A stretch of 64,000 nucleotides of DNA from a virus (lineage: Duplodnaviria; Heunggongvirae; Uroviricota; Caudoviricetes): the IMG/VR virus record IMGVR_UViG_2524614843_000001, positions 39,279 to 103,278 of that record. One strand, 5' to 3'. The position numbers and the translations under genes are program-made. This document shows, piece after piece, positions 6,347 through 53,026 of this stretch (position 1 is its first letter; each line of letters opens with the position of its first letter). The notes under the pieces are model-generated. The model ran no database searches. It was given only the letters and a program-made list of their open reading frames with translations, and was not told the origin of the DNA.

Positions 6347-7054
6347 TCACTCTCCCGCGCGTTCTGAGCGCGTTTCTGCGTCATTCCGGACGATCTCGAC
6401 TTTCTCCCCGTAATACTTCTCCAGAATCAGGGACGGGTTGAGATCTTCGACCAGATCGCCGTGCGTGGTGGCGACGATCAGAGTCTTGCCGGCGCGGCGT
6501 GCAGCCTGCTGCAGTTGGTACGAGATTGCCTTTGCGGTGTTCCGGTCGAGCACGGCGCCGAACTCGTCGGCAACCCATACATCGGCATCGCTGCTCAGCA
6601 TATAGGCAAGCAATAGACGGTATTTCTGGCCATCCGACAGTTCGCCCGGGCGCCGGATGACGAGGTTTGCGTCATTGATACCGCCAAGAGACAGCAGCCG
6701 GATGGCTTCTTGCATGTCACCATTGGGCGCCAGCTGGTCCACCAGCGGCAGATTCGGGTCGAAAAGCTGACTCAAAACGCCATCTGAGGCCAACCCAATC
6801 GAGCCGACTTTCAAGCCGGCCGTTGCCAGCTGGCGAGCAGTTTCTCGCAGCGCGATGGATTTGCCGGAGCCGGATTCGCCTGTGATGTAGAAAACGTCGC
6901 CCTGCTCGATCTCGAACTGCAGGTTGTCGTAGATGGTGAACTGCTTGTCGTCCAAACCAACGCCAAACATTTCTGCGACCTGGCGCACGCGCTCAGTGCG
7001 CATAACTGACATGGCAAAGGCGACGTTCAGAGTGATGGTGTGTTTCCAGCTCAT
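6347..7054 (-). CDS. Stand-alone ABC-type ATPase (235 aa)
   Basis: Walker A GESGSGKS, ABC signature LSDGQKYRL, Walker B VWVADEF, H-loop TTHGD; ATGA overlap with upstream ParB-like gene. Confidence 0.7.
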   Translation of the reverse strand: MSWKHTITLNVAFAMSVMRTERVRQVAEMFGVGLDDKQFTIYDNLQFEIEQGDVFYITGESGSGKSIALRETARQLATAGLKVGSIGLASDGVLSQLFDPNLPLVDQLAPNGDMQEAIRLLSLGGINDANLVIRRPGELSDGQKYRLLLAYMLSSDADVWVADEFGAVLDRNTAKAISYQLQQAARRAGKTLIVATTHGDLVEDLNPSLILEKYYGEKVEIVRNDAETRSERAGE

Positions 7055-7740: not shown

Positions 7741-7759
7741 GTCACCTGTGACTTACTTA
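7741..7759 (-). promoter_or_regulatory. Class-A motif copy (GTCAcctgTGACTTACTTA); includes stop codon of ParB-1 and ends 3 nt before ParB-2 ATG
   Basis: Minus reads gcTAAGTAAGTCAcagGTGACataATG. Confidence 0.55.
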
Positions 7760-8427
7760 GCGGTGAAGAGAATGTGAGCGAGAGCGTAGCCGGCATTAGT
7801 CAGCGCATCCTCTTCGGTAAAGCCTTGTTGCTCGCGGACGTTTTCAATCAGCTCGCGGATACGGATGGCGTCTGCCACCGGCACTTTGAAGCGGAGGATT
7901 TCGTGGGTTTTGACCTTTTCGCTCAGCGGCTCAACCACCGGTGCTTCTGGCGTCAGCTCTTCTGGCGCTGAAAAATCAGGAATTTCCAAGGCATCCAGAT
8001 CAATGCTGGTCGCTGCAAACAGATCATTGAGTTCGCGGTCACTAATCGGCATGAAGCTGGTGAGCTCTGGAAGATCAATATTCAGACTGGCAATGACCGC
8101 ATTCAGCGCGTCAATATCGTCGGCGCCGTAGCGCGCGTTATCCAGCAGGCCAATTTCTTTGGCCTCTTCATCGCTAATTGGGCCCAAGTTGAAAATCGGC
8201 ACTTCTGCCAGGCCAATTCGGATGGCTGATTCACATCGATGTTGGCCACCCAAAATTTCCAGAGTTAAACCTTCATTTGAGGGTATTTCGCGCACGATAA
8301 TTGGCTTAAACATGCCTCGGCGCTGAATACTCGCATCCAGTTTTGCCTCGTTATCCGGTGAAACTCGATTCGAGTTCCAAGGGTTAGGTTTTAGAGATCG
8401 CGGGTCAGCTTTTGATTGTCCAGTCAT
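7753..8427 (-). CDS. ParB N-terminal (ParB/Srx nuclease-like) domain protein 1
   Basis: 224 aa; GGQHR motif (EILGGQHRCESA) typical of ParB/DUF262-type domains. Confidence 0.6.
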   Translation of the reverse strand: MTGQSKADPRSLKPNPWNSNRVSPDNEAKLDASIQRRGMFKPIIVREIPSNEGLTLEILGGQHRCESAIRIGLAEVPIFNLGPISDEEAKEIGLLDNARYGADDIDALNAVIASLNIDLPELTSFMPISDRELNDLFAATSIDLDALEIPDFSAPEELTPEAPVVEPLSEKVKTHEILRFKVPVADAIRIRELIENVREQQGFTEEDALTNAGYALAHILFTAK

Positions 8428-16252: not shown

Positions 16253-16597
16253 TCAAGCGATCAGCATTTTGACGCGGCGGGAGATCTCATTGAATACAGA
16301 ATTGCCAAGCGTGGCCACTTTCACGCCATTGCGCGCCACAATATCAATCGTGCGGATTTGCAGCGGGTCGATGTAGCCGGAAACTGGCATACCGACAGGG
16401 AGTGGAATATCTGTTTTTTGCGGACCATTATTGCGTGTCGTGATGGGAATAACGATCGCATAGTTGGTCGCTTTGAATTCAGGTATGGAAATAATCAGGA
16501 CTTTGCGCGCGTTCTTGTAGTCCATTTCGCGGCCTAATGAACCAGCATCAGGATGTTGCAGCTCGACAATATCGCCAGGATTGAATGAATGGGACAT
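16253..16597 (-). CDS. mazF: MazF/PemK-family endoribonuclease toxin
   Basis: 114 aa; GDIV...PITTR...I.IVAR pattern of MazF/PemK/CcdB fold. Confidence 0.7.
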   Translation of the reverse strand: MSHSFNPGDIVELQHPDAGSLGREMDYKNARKVLIISIPEFKATNYAIVIPITTRNNGPQKTDIPLPVGMPVSGYIDPLQIRTIDIVARNGVKVATLGNSVFNEISRRVKMLIA

Positions 16598-16664: not shown

Positions 16665-17048
16665 TCAAATCACCACTTCCTCGCCTACAGGTCCGCCAAA
16701 GTCAGCGAGCGTGTAGTCAGCCGAGAGTTGGGACAGGCCGGCGAGAAAATCGTCTTGCGCGATACTGGGCAGATTAAAGTTGATGATCGGCGTATTGTCG
16801 GCGCCTTGCAGTACCCGAGCCTCACCTTGATCGACCTGCTTGCGGACCAGGAAGAAGGTTTCGCCTTCGATTTCAACCTCATGCCACTCGACCGCATCAC
16901 CGCGCTCCAGATGCAGGCGTTTACGCACCGGCGCACTGACGATGGCCGAGAGTGAGTTGCCGACGGCGGCGATTTTAGTGGTAGCGAAGGCTGCGGCTTC
17001 GCCGCTCACGATTTGGTGGCCGAGCTCTTCGAGTGTGGCGGTTTGCAT
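16665..17048 (-). CDS. mazE: MazE/AbrB-family antitoxin (swapped-hairpin domain) with C-terminal extension
   Basis: 127 aa; VGNSLSAIVSAPVRKRLHLERGDAVEWHEV matches MazE/AbrB looped-hinge helix; 67 nt upstream of toxin. Confidence 0.6.
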   Translation of the reverse strand: MQTATLEELGHQIVSGEAAAFATTKIAAVGNSLSAIVSAPVRKRLHLERGDAVEWHEVEIEGETFFLVRKQVDQGEARVLQGADNTPIINFNLPSIAQDDFLAGLSQLSADYTLADFGGPVGEEVVI

Positions 17049-27668: not shown

Positions 27669-28079
27669 TCACCGTTGTTGCGAATGAACAGATCGAGCTG
27701 CTCTTTGGCCTGCCGCGCGACGGCTGGAAATTCTTGGTTTGTGATCATTGCGCAGTAATTCCTCTGAATCTTGTTTGGTCATGAAGATATGCTCGATGCC
27801 ACTCCAGACCATGAAGTAGCACGGCACACCCATAAACTTGCCCTTGTGATAGGTCACGCACCGGTCTTGCAGCAGGTGAAGGCCTTTTGCGTGCCGGCCG
27901 AATGCGTACCCGAGCATGGAAGAGACCATCTTTAGCGACACCTTCCGGAAGAAGGTCTTGGCCGATATGCCTCTGGCGTTGTCCGTCATGCTGTCGAGCG
28001 CCTCGATAGCCCACCACCGCGTAGGCAGATCGCAACAGCGGGTATGCAATACGAGCCTCATTTGCGCTTCTCCCGACAT
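27669..28079 (-). CDS. Hypothetical protein (Cys/Trp-rich)
   Basis: ORF; start uncertain, overlaps small ORF 27545..27748. Confidence 0.35.
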   Translation of the reverse strand: MSGEAQMRLVLHTRCCDLPTRWWAIEALDSMTDNARGISAKTFFRKVSLKMVSSMLGYAFGRHAKGLHLLQDRCVTYHKGKFMGVPCYFMVWSGIEHIFMTKQDSEELLRNDHKPRISSRRAAGQRAARSVHSQQR

Positions 28080-28357
28080 GATGTGCAGTAGCCGTCGTAC
28101 TCACTGGCGTAACCCTTGCCGCAGCGACAAATCAAGCTGCCTGTGCGTGTGCTGCGCACAATTCGACGCCGATCTGCAGGCGGCACAATTCGATCGCCAG
28201 TTCGATCTGAGTACCGCTTGGCCTGCATTTCGTCCTCGAACAGTATTGAGCTCGCCATCCGGCCAGGCTTATCCGAGACGCACTTCCACTTGTAGGGATG
28301 CGGCACCCATAAGTCATTCAGCGATGACTGATTTTGCTGTTGATGCCAAGTGCTCAT
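28058..28357 (-). CDS. Hypothetical protein with C-terminal Cys4 zinc-ribbon
   Basis: CRCG...CTSC. Confidence 0.45.
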   Translation of the reverse strand: MSTWHQQQNQSSLNDLWVPHPYKWKCVSDKPGRMASSILFEDEMQAKRYSDRTGDRIVPPADRRRIVRSTRTGSLICRCGKGYASEYDGYCTSCREKRK

Positions 28358-28743
28358 TCATGCACCCCCACTACCACCTCAGTCGCGGGCTGGCCGGTCA
28401 CTTCATAACCGTGCAGATTGCCCAGCTCGTACAGCTGATCGTCACTGCCCTCTCCCCAAATGTGAGAGCGGCCGCCGTCGCTCATGTAGACCGTCACTGG
28501 CTTGATCGGGTTGAGCATGAAGAACCAGCACGTCCAGCCTGATTCGTCACGCTGGCGCATGATCTGCCGGCCAACGTCCGAGCGCGTGAACTTGTAATCA
28601 CTGTGCCGGAAGCCTTGATAGTGAGCTCGGGTCACGCCAACGTCGGCTTCCTCGATCTCGAAAACCTGCTCGGTGCCTGGTCGCCCGTCATAGTGGGGAA
28701 CCAAGCTGCCGAGCCGAACCTTCTTCTCTCTCAGCAGCTTCAT
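28354..28743 (-). CDS. Hypothetical protein
   Basis: Start at MKLLREKK adjacent to upstream stop. Confidence 0.45.
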   Translation of the reverse strand: MKLLREKKVRLGSLVPHYDGRPGTEQVFEIEEADVGVTRAHYQGFRHSDYKFTRSDVGRQIMRQRDESGWTCWFFMLNPIKPVTVYMSDGGRSHIWGEGSDDQLYELGNLHGYEVTGQPATEVVVGVHE

Positions 28744-38930: not shown

Positions 38931-39046
38931 GATAACGGAAACTTAATGGCGCGTCTGTCGTCTGTAGAGTGTCACCGGTAGTATTTTATTGCTGGTATGA
39001 TGCAAAATGCCGACAATAGACTGGCATTTTGCAAATGGAGGTTCTG

Positions 39047-39835
39047 ATGAATGTGAAATCGCTATTTTGGTCTCGTAGAAGGGTCAAAGAGCGCAATGCC
39101 AGGGCGCTTTCTCTACAGCCAAGCAGGAATCAGTCCGACACTTTGGTTGTGAATGTGATTGCCGATCTGTCACAGGCTGATCTTTGCGGTCAAAATATTG
39201 CTCAGCAGGATTCGACAAGTAAAGCGCCAAAAAGATTGCACATGTCTAGGGTTATTGGAAAAAGAGGCGATGGTCGTCAGCGCAGCTCAGTTGTAAATAA
39301 ATTGAGCTATGCCTCTCCCTTTGATGCTACAAGCTTTTCGGTAGAGCTGGATTCAAACGGCGAGCTGAAAATATACCATCCAAAGAAAGCGCATCCGGTA
39401 CGTCCTTCAAACGATGAACTCTTGTACTACAAGGGGCGCCCAATCTCATTAGACCATGCAGGCGACATCAAGCAGAGCATCGCTTTTGCCAAGATGATTG
39501 AAGAAGGGCTCGACACGAAAACCATAAGGGCTCTTTTGGATGTAGGATTTACGCAGACTGAGCTCGATGTGGTCATACCTGCACGCACTCTGAAACGCAG
39601 GCTTGTATCTGATCAACAGCTGACCCGTGAAGAGTCGGCAAAATTGGTGCGATACGTTCGCACCTTCTCATCGGCTCTTGAGATCTTTGGCGATAAGGAA
39701 AAAGCGCTGGCATGGTTAAGAGCCCCCAAGAAGAAGCTGGATGGCAAAACGCCGCTCGATCTTCTGTCAAACGAAATAGCGGCTCAAGTAGTTGAGGATT
39801 ACCTTGGACAAATTCAGTCAGGGTACTTCGCATGA
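39047..39835 (+). CDS. Xre/MbcA/ParS-type antitoxin (C-terminal HTH + DUF2384 domain) with unusual about 110-aa N-terminal extension
   Basis: C-terminal ...GKTPLDLLSNEIAAQVVEDYLGQIQSGYFA typical of RES-partner antitoxins; GGAGG RBS; lower GC than surroundings; start uncertain. Confidence 0.55.
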   Translation: MNVKSLFWSRRRVKERNARALSLQPSRNQSDTLVVNVIADLSQADLCGQNIAQQDSTSKAPKRLHMSRVIGKRGDGRQRSSVVNKLSYASPFDATSFSVELDSNGELKIYHPKKAHPVRPSNDELLYYKGRPISLDHAGDIKQSIAFAKMIEEGLDTKTIRALLDVGFTQTELDVVIPARTLKRRLVSDQQLTREESAKLVRYVRTFSSALEIFGDKEKALAWLRAPKKKLDGKTPLDLLSNEIAAQVVEDYLGQIQSGYFA

Positions 39836-40266
39836 AGCTATATCGCATCAGTAATTATGCCGATTTGCAAGGGGAGGGAGGCCGGCGTTTTTCTGCTCGG
39901 TGGCATCACAAAGGCGAGCCGATTGTTTATCTTGGTGAGTCTGTGACTGGCTGTATGCTTGAGGTGATGGTTCACATAGAGGCGGATGTACCGGATACCT
40001 TCAAGCTAAGTACCGTAGAAACGAACGATGCGTCCGTACAAGCGCTCGACGTTTCCTCACTGCCAACAAACTGGCGGGACGATCAGGGTGTAACCAAGCA
40101 GATTGGAACGGAGTGGCTGGCCGATCAGTCCTCGGCCTTGCTGAGAGTGCCTAGCGCTATCGCGCCTGAAACATGGAACTACCTACTCAATCCAAAGCAT
40201 CCGGATGCGGCCAAGTGTGAGATTGTGGACGTGGATGATTACCCTTGGGACAAGCGCCTATTTTAA
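39832..40266 (+). CDS. RES-domain toxin (NAD+-targeting, MbcT/ParT-like)
   Basis: 144 aa; R..E..S motifs GGRRFSARW...YLGES...EVMVH; overlaps antitoxin stop. Confidence 0.7.
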   Translation: MKLYRISNYADLQGEGGRRFSARWHHKGEPIVYLGESVTGCMLEVMVHIEADVPDTFKLSTVETNDASVQALDVSSLPTNWRDDQGVTKQIGTEWLADQSSALLRVPSAIAPETWNYLLNPKHPDAAKCEIVDVDDYPWDKRLF

Positions 40267-50496: not shown

Positions 50497-50931
50497 CTAT
50501 GCGGCTTTTTTGGGACGTTCCGCCTTCTGCTTTGCTCGCTCGATCATGATGTTAGTCGTCACCTGCTCGATCTGGAGCGGACTCGCCTTTGTGAAGGCCT
50601 CTTCCGCAAGAACCAGTCCGCGATGGACGTTGAACACGGTGGTTTCGGTGATGGTCACGACGCGCTCCATAGCAACAGTCATATCCATGAGCCGGACTGC
50701 TTCATCGTAAGCTTTCTTTAATGCCGGAGGCACTTTTCCTTCCCGAAGCTCAGCCAGGCGCATTCCAATGCAAAGGGTGGCGTAGAGCTGACCAAGCATC
50801 GTTGCGTTCCCTGTACCGGTACTCAGGCATTCGAGAGCAATGCGTCCCTTGATGACGCGATTGACGACCTCTGCTCGGGAGAGCGTTCTTAGGTTCTCCA
50901 TTCGTTTGATGAGTGATAGGGCGTGTTTCAT
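50497..50931 (-). CDS. Hypothetical protein (144 aa)
   Basis: ORF. Confidence 0.5.
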   Translation of the reverse strand: MKHALSLIKRMENLRTLSRAEVVNRVIKGRIALECLSTGTGNATMLGQLYATLCIGMRLAELREGKVPPALKKAYDEAVRLMDMTVAMERVVTITETTVFNVHRGLVLAEEAFTKASPLQIEQVTTNIMIERAKQKAERPKKAA

Positions 50932-51292
50932 GATTTCACCAATTTAACCTTGAGCCTGGCGCGGCGGAACTCGGAGACCGGCAGCATCCGTTGCAACTGA
51001 TAGCCGGCGTGTTTTGCTCGACGATAAATCGAGGGGTCAAGCGCCTTTGCGAGCTGAGTGAGGTGCAGTTCATTCTCGGTCTTGTCCCAGACGCCAAGTA
51101 GCGTCGCGCCTTTCCGTTCTGCCTTGTAGATGAGGTCCTGATCGAAGCCCCACATGGCGTCGCCGGACCGCAGTGCTTCACTGATCGAGCTCAGACCATT
51201 GGTGTAAATGTGCGCGGTTTTCTTGTAGGAAATGAAAGCCAGGTTCTCTCCTATGAGATAGAAGGCTCCTAATTGCTTCCTTCCCTTGCGCA
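50928..51292 (-). CDS. Hypothetical protein (GTG start, AGGAGG RBS)
   Basis: Shorter than listed ORF; class-A copy at 51342-51360 upstream. Confidence 0.4.
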
Positions 51293-51341
51293 CGACTTCA
51301 ATTTTCTCCACACATACCTCCTGCAAGGGCGCAAATAATAT

Positions 51342-51360
51342 GTCAGCGCTGACTATTAAA
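51342..51360 (-). promoter_or_regulatory. Class-A motif copy (GTCAgcgcTGACTATTAAA)
   Basis: Perfect palindrome core. Confidence 0.45.
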
Positions 51361-51641
51361 CAAGCCTCTGTTTGTATTTGCTGACAGAACATATTTTATT
51401 GAAGGAAATAAGGTGTGAAACGGTAGAAACTTGATTACAAAAACAAAACGGACATGGCTGGAAAATTTGCGTCGTTTTGTAGACACCACTCGGTAAAAAT
51501 CACTTGCTCTTGCGAAAGTCCCGTAAATGGCTCAAGATGATACATATACGCTACATAAGCGCCCCCCACTGTTACTTTTACGCCTCTATGCTCGCTCGAC
51601 ACAGGACTACCCATCCGTTCATGCTTATGAGGTGACTAATT

Positions 51642-51872
51642 ATGGCCATCACAACCCTGAAAAAAATACCTCGGCAGTTTATGTACGCCGGTGTGAATCG
51701 TTCTTGCGCTTCTGATAGAATGTTCCTCGTCTCCCGAGAGGACTTTGATCGTTTGATCGGGCCAAATCACGAGCGTCTCTCCCAAGATAGAGTTAGGGAG
51801 ATCGCTACATTCATGGTTCGTAAGATCAATAGTCGCGGCAAAATAAATGGAAGAATCAAAAAAGTCGGTTAG
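51642..51872 (+). CDS. DUF1778/TacA-like antitoxin (short; C-terminal toxin-binding region conserved)
   Basis: 76 aa; DRMFLVSREDFDRLIGPN resembles DUF1778 C-terminal segment; GAGGTGA RBS. Confidence 0.45.
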   Translation: MAITTLKKIPRQFMYAGVNRSCASDRMFLVSREDFDRLIGPNHERLSQDRVREIATFMVRKINSRGKINGRIKKVG

Positions 51873-52521
51873 TGAAGAACCAAACTTTGATGCCGACGAG
51901 ATCGGCCCATTGAAGCCTGAACATGATTGTTCGGGCTTCGTTGTTTCTGCGCCCGCAGACGCGAGCGGCGACGAGCAGATTCGCTTTGCCGATCTGCAAA
52001 ACTACCTAACCTCCGGTCAGGCACTCGCAGAGCACACTGCAGGCTATACCAAAGTCACCGTCGTCTACAACGGTAAAACGCAAGAAGTTCACGGCTACTA
52101 TACCTGCAACGTCACTACGCTCAACGTGATGGATAGCCGTAGCACCGTATGCCCCGGCGCAACCGATCACTTCGACGTTCAAGTGCCGACTTACGGAGTG
52201 CCGGCGCTCATGCTTAGCAGGCTTGCCGTTCGCTCGGATGTGCAAGGTTTCGGCTATGGTAGTGAGATGATGCAAGACCTCTTCCAGCATTTTGAAGAGG
52301 TCGCACAAGTGACGCCATTGACCGGCATTGCTCTGGACTATCTCGACGCCAAAGCCATGAGTTTTTATGGCAAATTCGGCTTCTCGGCATTCAACAACAA
52401 GAACACCAAGCACCGCATGTTCCTTTCGAGAGCAGACGTGATCGCGCTGAATGCCACCGTTGTCGATGAAATCGCCGATGCCGAAGAGGCGCTCGACGAA
52501 GCGACGGACAAGACTAGCTGA
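51847..52521 (+). CDS. GNAT-family toxin (TacT/KacT-like aminoacyl-tRNA acetyltransferase)
   Basis: 224 aa; PLKPEHD.SGF.....GYYTCNVTTL and ALMLSRLAVRSDVQGFGYGSEMM follow the TacT pattern. Confidence 0.6.
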   Translation: MEESKKSVSEEPNFDADEIGPLKPEHDCSGFVVSAPADASGDEQIRFADLQNYLTSGQALAEHTAGYTKVTVVYNGKTQEVHGYYTCNVTTLNVMDSRSTVCPGATDHFDVQVPTYGVPALMLSRLAVRSDVQGFGYGSEMMQDLFQHFEEVAQVTPLTGIALDYLDAKAMSFYGKFGFSAFNNKNTKHRMFLSRADVIALNATVVDEIADAEEALDEATDKTS

Positions 52522-53026
52522 CCCGCTTCATGTAGATGGCCGTGGCGTATTTGTTCTGCATCGCCAGGTTGCCGTAGCAGTTCCGCAGGACGCGCCAGAT
52601 CGCCTTGCCTGGCTCGTCTACTTCCTTGCCGAGCAGGGTGTGATTGTCAGCGCCAAAGTTGTCACACACATCCTGCAGCTCGCCGGCATAGACCGCATCC
52701 ACCTCGCCATACCCGAAGATCTGACCGGTCTTTGTGCTGACCAGACCAACCCGAGTACCGATCTTCACACGTTCCGCCCAGGCTTTCCCCACTCGAATCG
52801 TATTAAAGCGCGCCGTCATACCGGCATCTGACTGGAAGGCAATGACAGGCAGGAAGTCGCTACATTCCGTGATGCGCTGTGCGCTGGAGTACGGAGCAAG
52901 CACGGCACGCTCGCACGCCAGCTGATTGCCGCAGTGCGCGCAAAGTGACTTGTCCGCTTGCTTGGAAGTCGTGATGTAGCCGGCAGGAGTGAGCCGGACG
53001 TACCGATAGTTGGTGTCCAAAGTCAT
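52514..53026 (-). CDS. Hypothetical protein (PUA/ASCH-like?)
   Basis: Start at MTLDTNYRY; CxxC pair; convergent 8-nt overlap with GNAT toxin gene. Confidence 0.4.
   Translation of the reverse strand: MTLDTNYRYVRLTPAGYITTSKQADKSLCAHCGNQLACERAVLAPYSSAQRITECSDFLPVIAFQSDAGMTARFNTIRVGKAWAERVKIGTRVGLVSTKTGQIFGYGEVDAVYAGELQDVCDNFGADNHTLLGKEVDEPGKAIWRVLRNCYGNLAMQNKYATAIYMKRVS

Follow-up and report, generated by a model that had tools for sequence, protein, structure and literature searches.

The stretch of 64,000 nucleotides analysed here (the window) covers positions 39,279 to 103,278 of the IMG/VR virus record IMGVR_UViG_2524614843_000001, a member of the Caudoviricetes. It carries, on its plus strand, a cassette of two overlapping genes: a small open reading frame (ORF) of 76 aa, ORF76, and a gene for a 224-aa GNAT acetyltransferase. 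By its fold and its catalytic residues, both judged from sequence and a structural model, the acetyltransferase is clearly of the TacT/AtaT/KacT toxin type. We suggest that the two genes form a type II-like toxin-antitoxin (TA) module of the GNAT/DUF1778 kind, located on a phage or phage-plasmid and with an antitoxin that has no ribbon-helix-helix (RHH) domain for binding DNA; we hold this reading to have about an even chance of being correct. Within it, the antitoxin role of ORF76 is plausible, and it is supported more by analogy with the partners of related toxins than by the sequence of ORF76 itself. With its RHH-less partner, inverted charge polarity and divergent toxin, the module would probably be a variant of that kind.

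Both genes, and their overlap of 26 nt, lie where the sequence-only reading of this DNA had placed them. ORF76 has the position of an antitoxin-like gene, directly upstream of the GNAT gene and overlapping it; canonical pairs overlap by 1-10 nt. The net charges of the two proteins complement each other (ORF76, +10; GNAT, -18). The features that carry the argument are the following.

51629-51635, plus strand: Shine-Dalgarno sequence GAGGTGA, 6 nt upstream of the ATG of ORF76 (duplex with the 3' end of 16S rRNA, -11.3 kcal/mol)
51642-51872, plus strand: ORF76, a putative antitoxin without RHH, listed among the gene calls of the NCBI and Logan assemblies; basic protein of 76 aa with a net charge of +10 and an isoelectric point (pI) of 11.2
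51708-51761, plus strand: residues 23-40 of ORF76 (ASDRMFLVSREDFDRLIG), resembling the betaB-alphaC toxin-binding part of DUF1778/TacA in comparisons with hhalign and hidden Markov models (HMMs)
51847-52521, plus strand: GNAT acetyltransferase of the tRNA-acetylating toxin type, 224 aa, pI 4.5, assigned by Pfam, PHROG, PDB and fold
52243-52260, plus strand: acetyl-CoA pyrophosphate-binding loop Q133-G-F-G-Y-G138 (G134 and G136 nearly invariant, G138 invariant in 31 toxin homologues)
52366-52368, plus strand: codon of Tyr174, the counterpart of the catalytic Tyr (AtaT Y144, KacT Y145), in an invariant column and in the alignment to KacT
52432-52518, plus strand: acidic C-terminal extension of GNAT, residues 196-224, charge -8, absent from typical toxins (helix 195-221 in the AlphaFold2 model, predicted local distance difference test score (pLDDT) of the block 85-88)

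Fold and catalytic residues of the GNAT protein

In Pfam, the protein matches Acetyltransf_7 and Acetyltransf_1 just over the threshold, and in PHROG it matches phrog_1758, annotated 'acetyltransferase', with an E-value of 8e-24. Sequence searches against the PDB are specific for toxins: all matches at E <0.01 are GNAT toxins, namely AtaT2, KacT, AtaT, TacT1-3, ItaT and GmvT. A profile generated from the 31 nearest homologues matches every solved GNAT toxin, with E-values from 1e-19 to 1e-45.

The structural comparison gives the same picture. The AlphaFold2 model, made with the homologue alignment as input, has a pLDDT of 88.5 and a predicted template modelling (TM) score of 0.81. When this model is searched against the PDB with Foldseek, ranks 1-38 are all toxin chains (TacT, AtaT, KacT, ItaT and GmvT; E 2.6e-13 to 2e-8, target TM 0.73-0.88), and the first GNAT that is not a toxin appears at E 4e-6 with a TM of ~0.5. 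In the viral structure library BFVD no comparably close structure was found, the best match there having an E-value of 3e-6 and a TM of 0.4-0.5.

The residues for catalysis and cofactor binding are also conserved. In the alignment of 31 homologues, the invariant family columns F31, A127, G138 and Y174 are all kept. Y116, R125 (of the SRLAV motif) and G138 correspond to Y85, R95 and G108 of AtaT, and all three are retained. In AtaT, the residues R95, Y85, G108 and Y144 are required for toxicity, and the substitution G108D abolishes it (PMC7595197). The closest relatives of the protein share the signature F-x-C-G ... L-D-x-Y-L ... LGRLAV ... QG-x-G-x-G ... VDA ... FY-x-x-x-GF. The ORF is intact and its codon usage is normal (score 0.35).

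The GNAT domain and the acetyl-CoA motif named in the sequence-only reading are present, and its assignment of the protein to the TacT/KacT-like toxins is strongly supported by both sequence and fold. The toxin fold, the catalytic Tyr and the acetyl-CoA loop are shared with the known systems TacAT from Salmonella, AtaRT and AtaR2T2 from E. coli O157, KacAT from Klebsiella, ItaRT and GmvAT.

ORF76 and the toxin-binding region of DUF1778 antitoxins

ORF76 is probably a real gene, because a very strong Shine-Dalgarno sequence precedes it and none precedes GNAT. Its duplex with the 16S 3' end is beaten by just two of the 30 reference genes of the window, and among random 22-mers only about 4% get to -9 kcal/mol. 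At the GNAT ATG the duplex is -1.7 kcal/mol, weaker than at all 30 reference genes, i.e., there is essentially no Shine-Dalgarno sequence; the alternative start, a TTG at codon 22 (51910), has a mediocre site of -5.0 kcal/mol. The frame of ORF76 has the best codon score of the six, the off-frame mean being -0.52. If the spacer is shuffled with dinucleotides preserved, 3.2% of the shuffles contain an ORF of 76 aa or more that ends beside the GNAT start, or 1.9% if an ATG start is demanded. The most economical reading of these signals is that ORF76 is translated and that the translation of GNAT is coupled to it or dependent on it.

It had been proposed that ORF76 is the C-terminal remnant of a DUF1778 antitoxin, marked by the string FLVSREDFDRL. 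The string is present and the RHH is indeed absent; however, the likeness to DUF1778 is short and weak and gives no match in Pfam. The test profiles were built without ORF76. With a profile of six DUF1778 sequences, hhalign places residues 23-40 opposite positions 50-67 (probability 1.9%, P=0.025). With an HMM of 117 DUF1778 proteins, residues 25-40 align to positions 52-67 at 4.3 bits, which is equalled by 23 of 5000 shuffles and is ranked fourth among the 856 stop-to-stop segments of the window. The C-terminal half of DUF1778 alone, as an HMM of 140 sequences, gives 5.4 bits (4/5000 shuffles), and a broader full-length HMM gives 1.3 bits (197/5000, P=0.04). The best chance score of a DUF1778 HMM in the window, 9.9 bits, belongs to a 208-aa ORF segment on the plus strand (27916-28542), which overlies minus-strand genes and is probably spurious.

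The matched segment lies in the part of the profile that corresponds to the neutralising peptides seen in crystal structures: positions 50-89 for GmvA, 55-90 for TacA1 and 45-81 for AtaR. The AlphaFold2 prediction of ORF76 from its single sequence (pLDDT 51) contains a strand at 26-31, a helix at 32-39, a loop that includes Pro41, and a helix at 48-65. This strand-helix-helix order agrees with the toxin-binding region of DUF1778, as far as a model of low confidence can tell. In KacA, that region, which wraps around KacT, runs from betaB (52-56) and alphaC (57-70) through a PPAP linker to alphaD (75-86) (PMC6698736). In the multiple alignment, the L-D-x-P motif is lost from ORF76.

An antitoxin reduced to this region could in principle be sufficient. 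Crystal structures of toxin-peptide complexes show that C-terminal antitoxin peptides alone bind their toxins, KacT is still neutralised by a KacA that is missing the first 10 residues of its N-terminus (PMC6698736), and the C-terminal region of AtaR blocks both tRNA binding and the alignment of acetyl-CoA (PMC7758455). ORF76 thus resembles the antitoxins of the GNAT/DUF1778 systems in being a small, overlapping upstream partner with a segment similar to their betaB-alphaC neutralising hook, but it differs from them in having no RHH and in falling under the Pfam threshold for TacA1.

The missing domain was looked for in ORF76 and in all six frames of 51250-51900, by an HMM scan with stops masked and in the translations, and no RHH was found. 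The N-terminus of an antitoxin had been suspected in another frame; this suggestion is not borne out, as no frame of that region contains an RHH remnant. A frameshift or a sequencing error that hides the RHH can likewise be rejected, given the six empty frames and an independent Logan assembly that is identical over 20,675 nt. No DNA-binding domain was detected in ORF76, and in this it departs from the autoregulation that is expected of a type II TA system.

The reading of ORF76 as an RHH-less antitoxin gains its credibility from the two closest relatives of GNAT, because their partners also lack the RHH. The closest relative (P0003, locus L017) has a 62-aa ORF upstream (L017:1868-2056) with an overlap of 4 nt, and the second closest (P0004, locus L019) has an 83-aa ORF upstream (L019:1967-2218). 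Neither of the two ORFs has a Pfam match or an RHH. Against the profile of the C-terminal half of DUF1778, the 62-aa partner scores 18.3 bits (E 9e-8, 0/5000 shuffles) and the 83-aa partner 8.4 bits (E 1.2e-4, 3/5000 shuffles). In the relatives ranked third and fourth, the antitoxin is a canonical PF08681 protein. The same holds for 18 of 21 metagenomic loci at greater distance that were retrieved with P0003 as query, and relatives on plasmids and in a mycobacterial prophage have an overlapping DUF1778 gene upstream (89-94 aa).

Judging from these sequences, RHH-less 'hook-only' partners are real in this corner of the GNAT family, and the partners in L017 and L019 appear to be an unannotated class of antitoxins that Pfam PF08681 misses. 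The two loci are similar to the cassette in that a short upstream ORF with neither Pfam match nor RHH overlaps or abuts the GNAT gene. However, their partners keep the motif L-(D/E)-x-P and score 18.3 and 8.4 bits where ORF76 scores 5.4, and the two pairs have the normal polarity, with a toxin pI of ~9 and a partner pI of ~5.

In the literature, we found no account of DUF1778 derivatives without RHH as such. The nearest description is that of Bikmetov et al. 2022, who report homologues of GNAT toxins in TA-like bicistronic loci with short upstream ORFs that have no DNA-binding domain (PMC9177977). Both unidentified antitoxins and different physiological functions were left open for these loci (PMC9177977). 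The cassette shares with the loci outside their 'true TA clade' the bicistronic layout and a short, divergent upstream ORF without a predictable DNA-binding domain. The nearest neighbours of the GNAT protein include both canonical DUF1778-associated toxins and toxins with RHH-less partners.

Evidence against the proposed module, alternative readings and a possible mechanism

Several observations, on ORF76 as well as on GNAT, weigh against a GNAT/DUF1778 module. The likeness of ORF76 to DUF1778 extends over just 16-18 residues, is weak and depends on the profile used (P ~0.001-0.04), and PF08681 is not reported for it even at E <=10, while control antitoxins score 80-83 bits. No pairwise similarity was detected between ORF76 and the partners in L017 and L019, and the charge polarity of ORF76 and GNAT is inverted with respect to both those pairs and the canonical ones. 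ORF76 is an orphan, for which a word-indexed search of 5.8 billion proteins returned the identical sequence only, and its codon score of -0.08 is under those of all 120 chunks of real genes (minimum -0.03). A search for promoters and operators upstream of the cassette identified none. In GNAT, the FDCG motif is lost and the net charge of -18 falls outside the range of the homologues. Two groups of basic residues in AtaT are also missing: H34/R37/R40 are replaced by Q58/A61/T64, and the K77-K82 cluster by an acidic loop that contains no Lys or Arg and two Asp.

The first group of these points raises the question whether ORF76 is a chance ORF or a decayed remnant, in which case GNAT would be a solitary or decaying toxin homologue. 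A solitary GNAT could be harmless through weak translation, through its own acidic extensions or through antisense transcription from the convergent lytic operon. In addition to the low codon score, ORF76 has a GC content of 45.5% with weak codon periodicity, it is an orphan without a match in Pfam, NCBIfam, PHROG, PADLOC or the PDB, its AlphaFold2 model is of low confidence, and a frequency of 3.2% among shuffles is not very rare. The convergent overlap of 8 nt without a terminator at the other end of the cassette (see below) points in the same direction. However, a chance ORF would hardly be expected to have so strong and well-spaced a Shine-Dalgarno sequence when GNAT has none, to lie in the best-scoring frame of the six, or to match the correct segment of DUF1778 at rank 4 of 856. 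The RHH-less partners upstream of the two nearest relatives also speak against it, as does an intact GNAT gene with all its catalytic residues and a codon score of 0.35. We consider this explanation quite improbable.

The second group of points concerns the distance between GNAT and the toxins that it resembles. An exhaustive HMMER search of 1.84 billion representative proteins leaves GNAT a singleton at 50% identity. The search returned 335 matches, the best of which are proteins of 170-177 aa with 31-33% identity (E 3e-11), and no match had more than ~33% identity with an E-value below 3e-11; a word-indexed search for close homologues returned only the protein itself. The identity to the known toxins is at most 22% in structural alignment, compared with ~31-33% to the nearest metagenomic relatives.

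The TacT-type N-terminal motif that had been reported for GNAT turned out to be degenerate: H-D-x-S-G-F is kept, but FDCG has become FVVS and is followed by an insertion of 12 residues. In the toxins, the F-D/S-C-G motif stands directly before alpha1; here only the Phe is kept and the insertion precedes alpha1. The G in the fourth position of FDCG, which is at least 90% conserved among the homologues, is absent. A second insertion, of 8 residues, lies in the hairpin loop before PTYGVPA, and both ends of the protein carry acidic extensions, 20 residues at the N-terminus (charge -9) and ~29 at the C-terminus.

The toxins of GNAT/DUF1778 systems are normally basic, whereas GNAT is acidic and without the basic tRNA contacts of the AtaT type. 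Among 101 homologues the median pI is 8.8 and the minimum net charge -8, compared with a pI of 4.5 and a charge of -18 in GNAT. The acidity is mainly a property of the extensions, as the core (residues 46-195) has a pI of 6.6 and a net charge of -1; 8% of the homologues have a pI <6. The tRNA contacts were mapped through the sequence alignment to AtaT and the published mutagenesis (PMC7595197). In AtaT, the triple mutant of H34/R37/R40 is attenuated in toxicity, and mutation of the K77-K82 cluster reduces toxicity to the level of Y144F; the lysines of alpha3 are, however, not conserved beyond the AtaT/KacT clade (PMC7595197). GNAT has no basic residue in alpha1 and one in the hairpin/alpha3 region, where the homologue mean is 2.9 in each case; these counts are among the lowest of the homologues but still within their range.

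It is therefore doubtful, from its sequence, that GNAT acetylates tRNA. Toxicity through the acetylation of aminoacyl-tRNA is not assured, because the protein is acidic, the basic residues of AtaT are missing and FDCG is lost, three features that the sequence-only reading had overlooked, and the acidity makes a substrate other than tRNA a serious alternative. GNAT could then be an exapted acetyltransferase with a toxin fold, a moron enzyme of the phage that acts on a basic protein of host or phage or on a small molecule, and ORF76 could be its partner, its substrate or an ORF that serves for translational coupling. This view agrees with the charge, the scarcity of basic residues at the sites that contact the acceptor stem in AtaT (PMC7595197), the lost FDCG, the two insertions and two extensions, the isolated position of the protein at 50% identity and the lack of a PADLOC match. 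It deserves attention, but we think that it is unlikely, because the structural matches single out tRNA-acetylating toxins, with about seven orders of magnitude in E-value between these and any other GNAT, and because the catalytic Tyr, the Arg of the GRLAV motif and Y116 are retained, the counterparts of the latter two (AtaT R95 and Y85) being essential for toxicity. Further, the near-neutral core and the acidic minority of homologues make the charge less exceptional, the alpha3 lysines of AtaT are not a family-wide feature anyway, and a tight, antitoxin-like upstream ORF with a DUF1778-like segment suits a TA module.

A more far-reaching version can also be formulated, in which the cassette is a charge-inverted offshoot of the GNAT/TacA systems. 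The enzyme would have gained acidic arms at both termini and lost the tRNA-binding patch, and it would acetylate another, probably basic target such as a host protein, a protein of a rival phage or the lysine-rich ORF76. The RHH-less basic partner would be a regulator or adaptor, and expression would be gated by convergent lytic transcription in place of autoregulation by an antitoxin. We regard this scenario as improbable; if true, a phage would here have put the scaffold of a TA toxin to a new, phage-specific use.

If the cassette is, as we suggest, a GNAT/DUF1778 TA module, it could function as follows. The only good ribosome-binding site is at ORF76, which overlaps the GNAT start, so translation of GNAT would be coupled to that of ORF76 and the antitoxin would be kept in excess. 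Residues ~23-65 of ORF76 would lie on the toxin as a strand, a helix, a Pro-containing linker and a second helix, like the betaB-alphaC-alphaD hook of KacA, AtaR and TacA. Such a hook would block the acetyl-CoA/substrate groove as well as dimerisation, and the basic tail of ORF76 (+7) may contact the acidic extensions of GNAT (-17) as an auxiliary interface. As the DNA-binding RHH half is absent, there would be no autoregulation through the antitoxin; expression would presumably be constitutive or be controlled by the phage or by antisense transcripts of the convergent lytic operon. Once ORF76 disappears, by loss of the element or by proteolysis, free GNAT would acetylate aminoacyl-tRNA or another component of translation and cause growth arrest. 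This arrest would stabilise the element or exclude competitors.

Genome setting and biological role

The 224-aa protein is identical to one annotated as 'GNAT family N-acetyltransferase [Chitinibacter tainanensis]' on a contig of 103,278 bp; this betaproteobacterium belongs to the Neisseriales. In the Logan assembly the element is found in two contigs of 80.7 kb and 22.3 kb, the sum of which equals the NCBI contig. Gene calls around the cassette reveal a replication-recombination block on the minus strand with SbcCD, lysozyme, RecA/UvsX, FEN, gp32 and Pol III alpha, in which ORF76 and GNAT form a plus-strand island. Terminase, tail genes and ParB are found elsewhere in the window; a ParB_N protein (7753-8427, minus strand) and an adjacent ABC-type ATPase (6347-7054, minus strand) are close to the terminase.

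The RecA of the element is 36-42% identical to the RecA of phages of 100-120 kb. These relatives include Stenotrophomonas BUCTxx99, Pseudomonas nickie and phage-plasmids of the SSU5 and Klebsiella ST13-OXA48phi12.3 type. Scans of genome and viral contigs with RecA gave only relatives of at most 43% identity, no DNA match to the element was found in a phage collection, and a query of viral contigs with the single GNAT protein found no related locus. In BUCTxx99, RecA is followed by a small gene and then by SbcCD, without the cassette; the distance is too great for a clean comparison. From its gene neighbourhood, the cassette is a 'moron' on the opposite strand to the replication-recombination genes of an SSU5/nickie-like element of ~103 kb from C. 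tainanensis. The element is likely a stand-alone phage or phage-plasmid; the ParB_N/ATPase genes, the SSU5-like RecA and a 103-kb contig that stands alone suggest the lifestyle of a phage-plasmid.

The cassette is bordered by the following features.

51393-51641, 249 nt, plus strand: AT-rich spacer between the divergent orf154/127 on the minus strand and ORF76, the presumed promoter and 5' untranslated region
51443-51480, no strand: inverted repeat ACAAAACG-N22-CGTTTTGT with 8-nt arms of 100% complementarity, from a repeat search
52514-53026, minus strand: orf170, a phage backbone gene with a match to phrog_2105, from gene calls and the ORF list

The description of the upstream region as an AT-rich promoter region is right with regard to its composition. 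The GC content is 42% in the spacer, 38% in 51300-51499 and 38-43% across 51200-51600, compared with 54% in the whole window; however, no plus-strand sigma-70 consensus was found upstream. An RNA antitoxin or a riboswitch in the spacer was considered and rejected, as Rfam gave no match there and no noteworthy tandem or direct repeats were seen. Read on the minus strand, the inverted repeat is followed by a run of T and is a candidate operator or a weak hairpin or minus-strand terminator; nothing links it to ORF76. The divergent neighbour orf154 (50928-51392, minus strand; 127 aa according to the gene caller) has no family match and a low codon score (0.08), and it may share an acquired AT-rich island with the cassette.

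At the other end, the convergent arrangement that had been described is confirmed, with the GNAT stop codon (52519-52521) and the stop of orf170 overlapping by 8 nt. No terminator was found between the two genes, and terminator-like matches occur inside the GNAT gene only, at chance level. Read-through from either of the convergent genes across 52514-52521 would yield antisense RNA to its neighbour, and this might switch expression between the lysogenic and the lytic state.

The window contains three TA modules, as had been counted. Besides the cassette, there is a PemK/MazF-like toxin at 16253-16597 on the minus strand (Pfam E 5.5e-12), and a plus-strand pair of a 268-aa antitoxin with Xre-like-HTH and Xre_MbcA_ParS_C domains (39029-39835) and a 144-aa RES-domain toxin (39832-40266), overlapping by 4 nt. 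Directly upstream of PemK lies a 127-aa ORF without a Pfam family (16665-17048, minus strand), maybe another non-canonical antitoxin partner. The RES-Xre pair forms a second plus-strand TA island, adjoining the genes for ribonucleotide reductase and thioredoxin, and it is also present in a second sample, SRR29904083. Three modules in one stretch had been called unusual; the number stands, but an SSU5-like phage-plasmid would make it less of a surprise, and ParB, the stand-alone 103-kb contig and the RecA relatives of the SSU5 type support this possibility.

The presence of PemK and RES-Xre in the same phage genome, and the opposite-strand layout of a moron, could also indicate that the cassette mainly serves in abortive infection, superinfection exclusion or anti-defence, with GNAT being released or activated when a competing phage infects. 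TA systems are implicated in phage defence (PMC9177977). However, the cassette matches no known defence system in PADLOC, there is no direct evidence for such a role, and with a plasmid-like lifestyle, as indicated by ParB and the stand-alone contig, addiction is the simplest role. We find a mainly defensive function very improbable, although it concerns the biological role and is compatible with the mechanism suggested for the TA module.

An addiction role has a precedent in phage-plasmids, of which Phd-Doc of P1 is an example. Like Phd-Doc, it would be a TA cassette of a temperate element, one for which replication as a plasmid is probable in view of ParB, the stand-alone 103-kb contig and the SSU5-like replication genes. 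It differs in the toxin family and in the missing DNA-binding domain of ORF76, and the plasmid lifestyle is here deduced from gene content.

Whatever the role of the cassette, its presence means that a large temperate phage or phage-plasmid with PemK and RES-Xre has a toxin-type GNAT on board as well. The polarity of an acidic toxin and a basic partner, together with the missing tRNA contacts, turns substrate specificity into a directly testable question. If ORF76 neutralises GNAT, it would be a natural minimal antitoxin, consisting of the neutralising hook only and without a DNA-binding domain, and the module would be a natural experiment on how TA systems are regulated without RHH-based conditional cooperativity. 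ORF76 and the RHH-less partners of the two closest relatives would then make up an unannotated sub-class of GNAT TA systems, which TA finders based on domains miss because its members have no PF08681 match.

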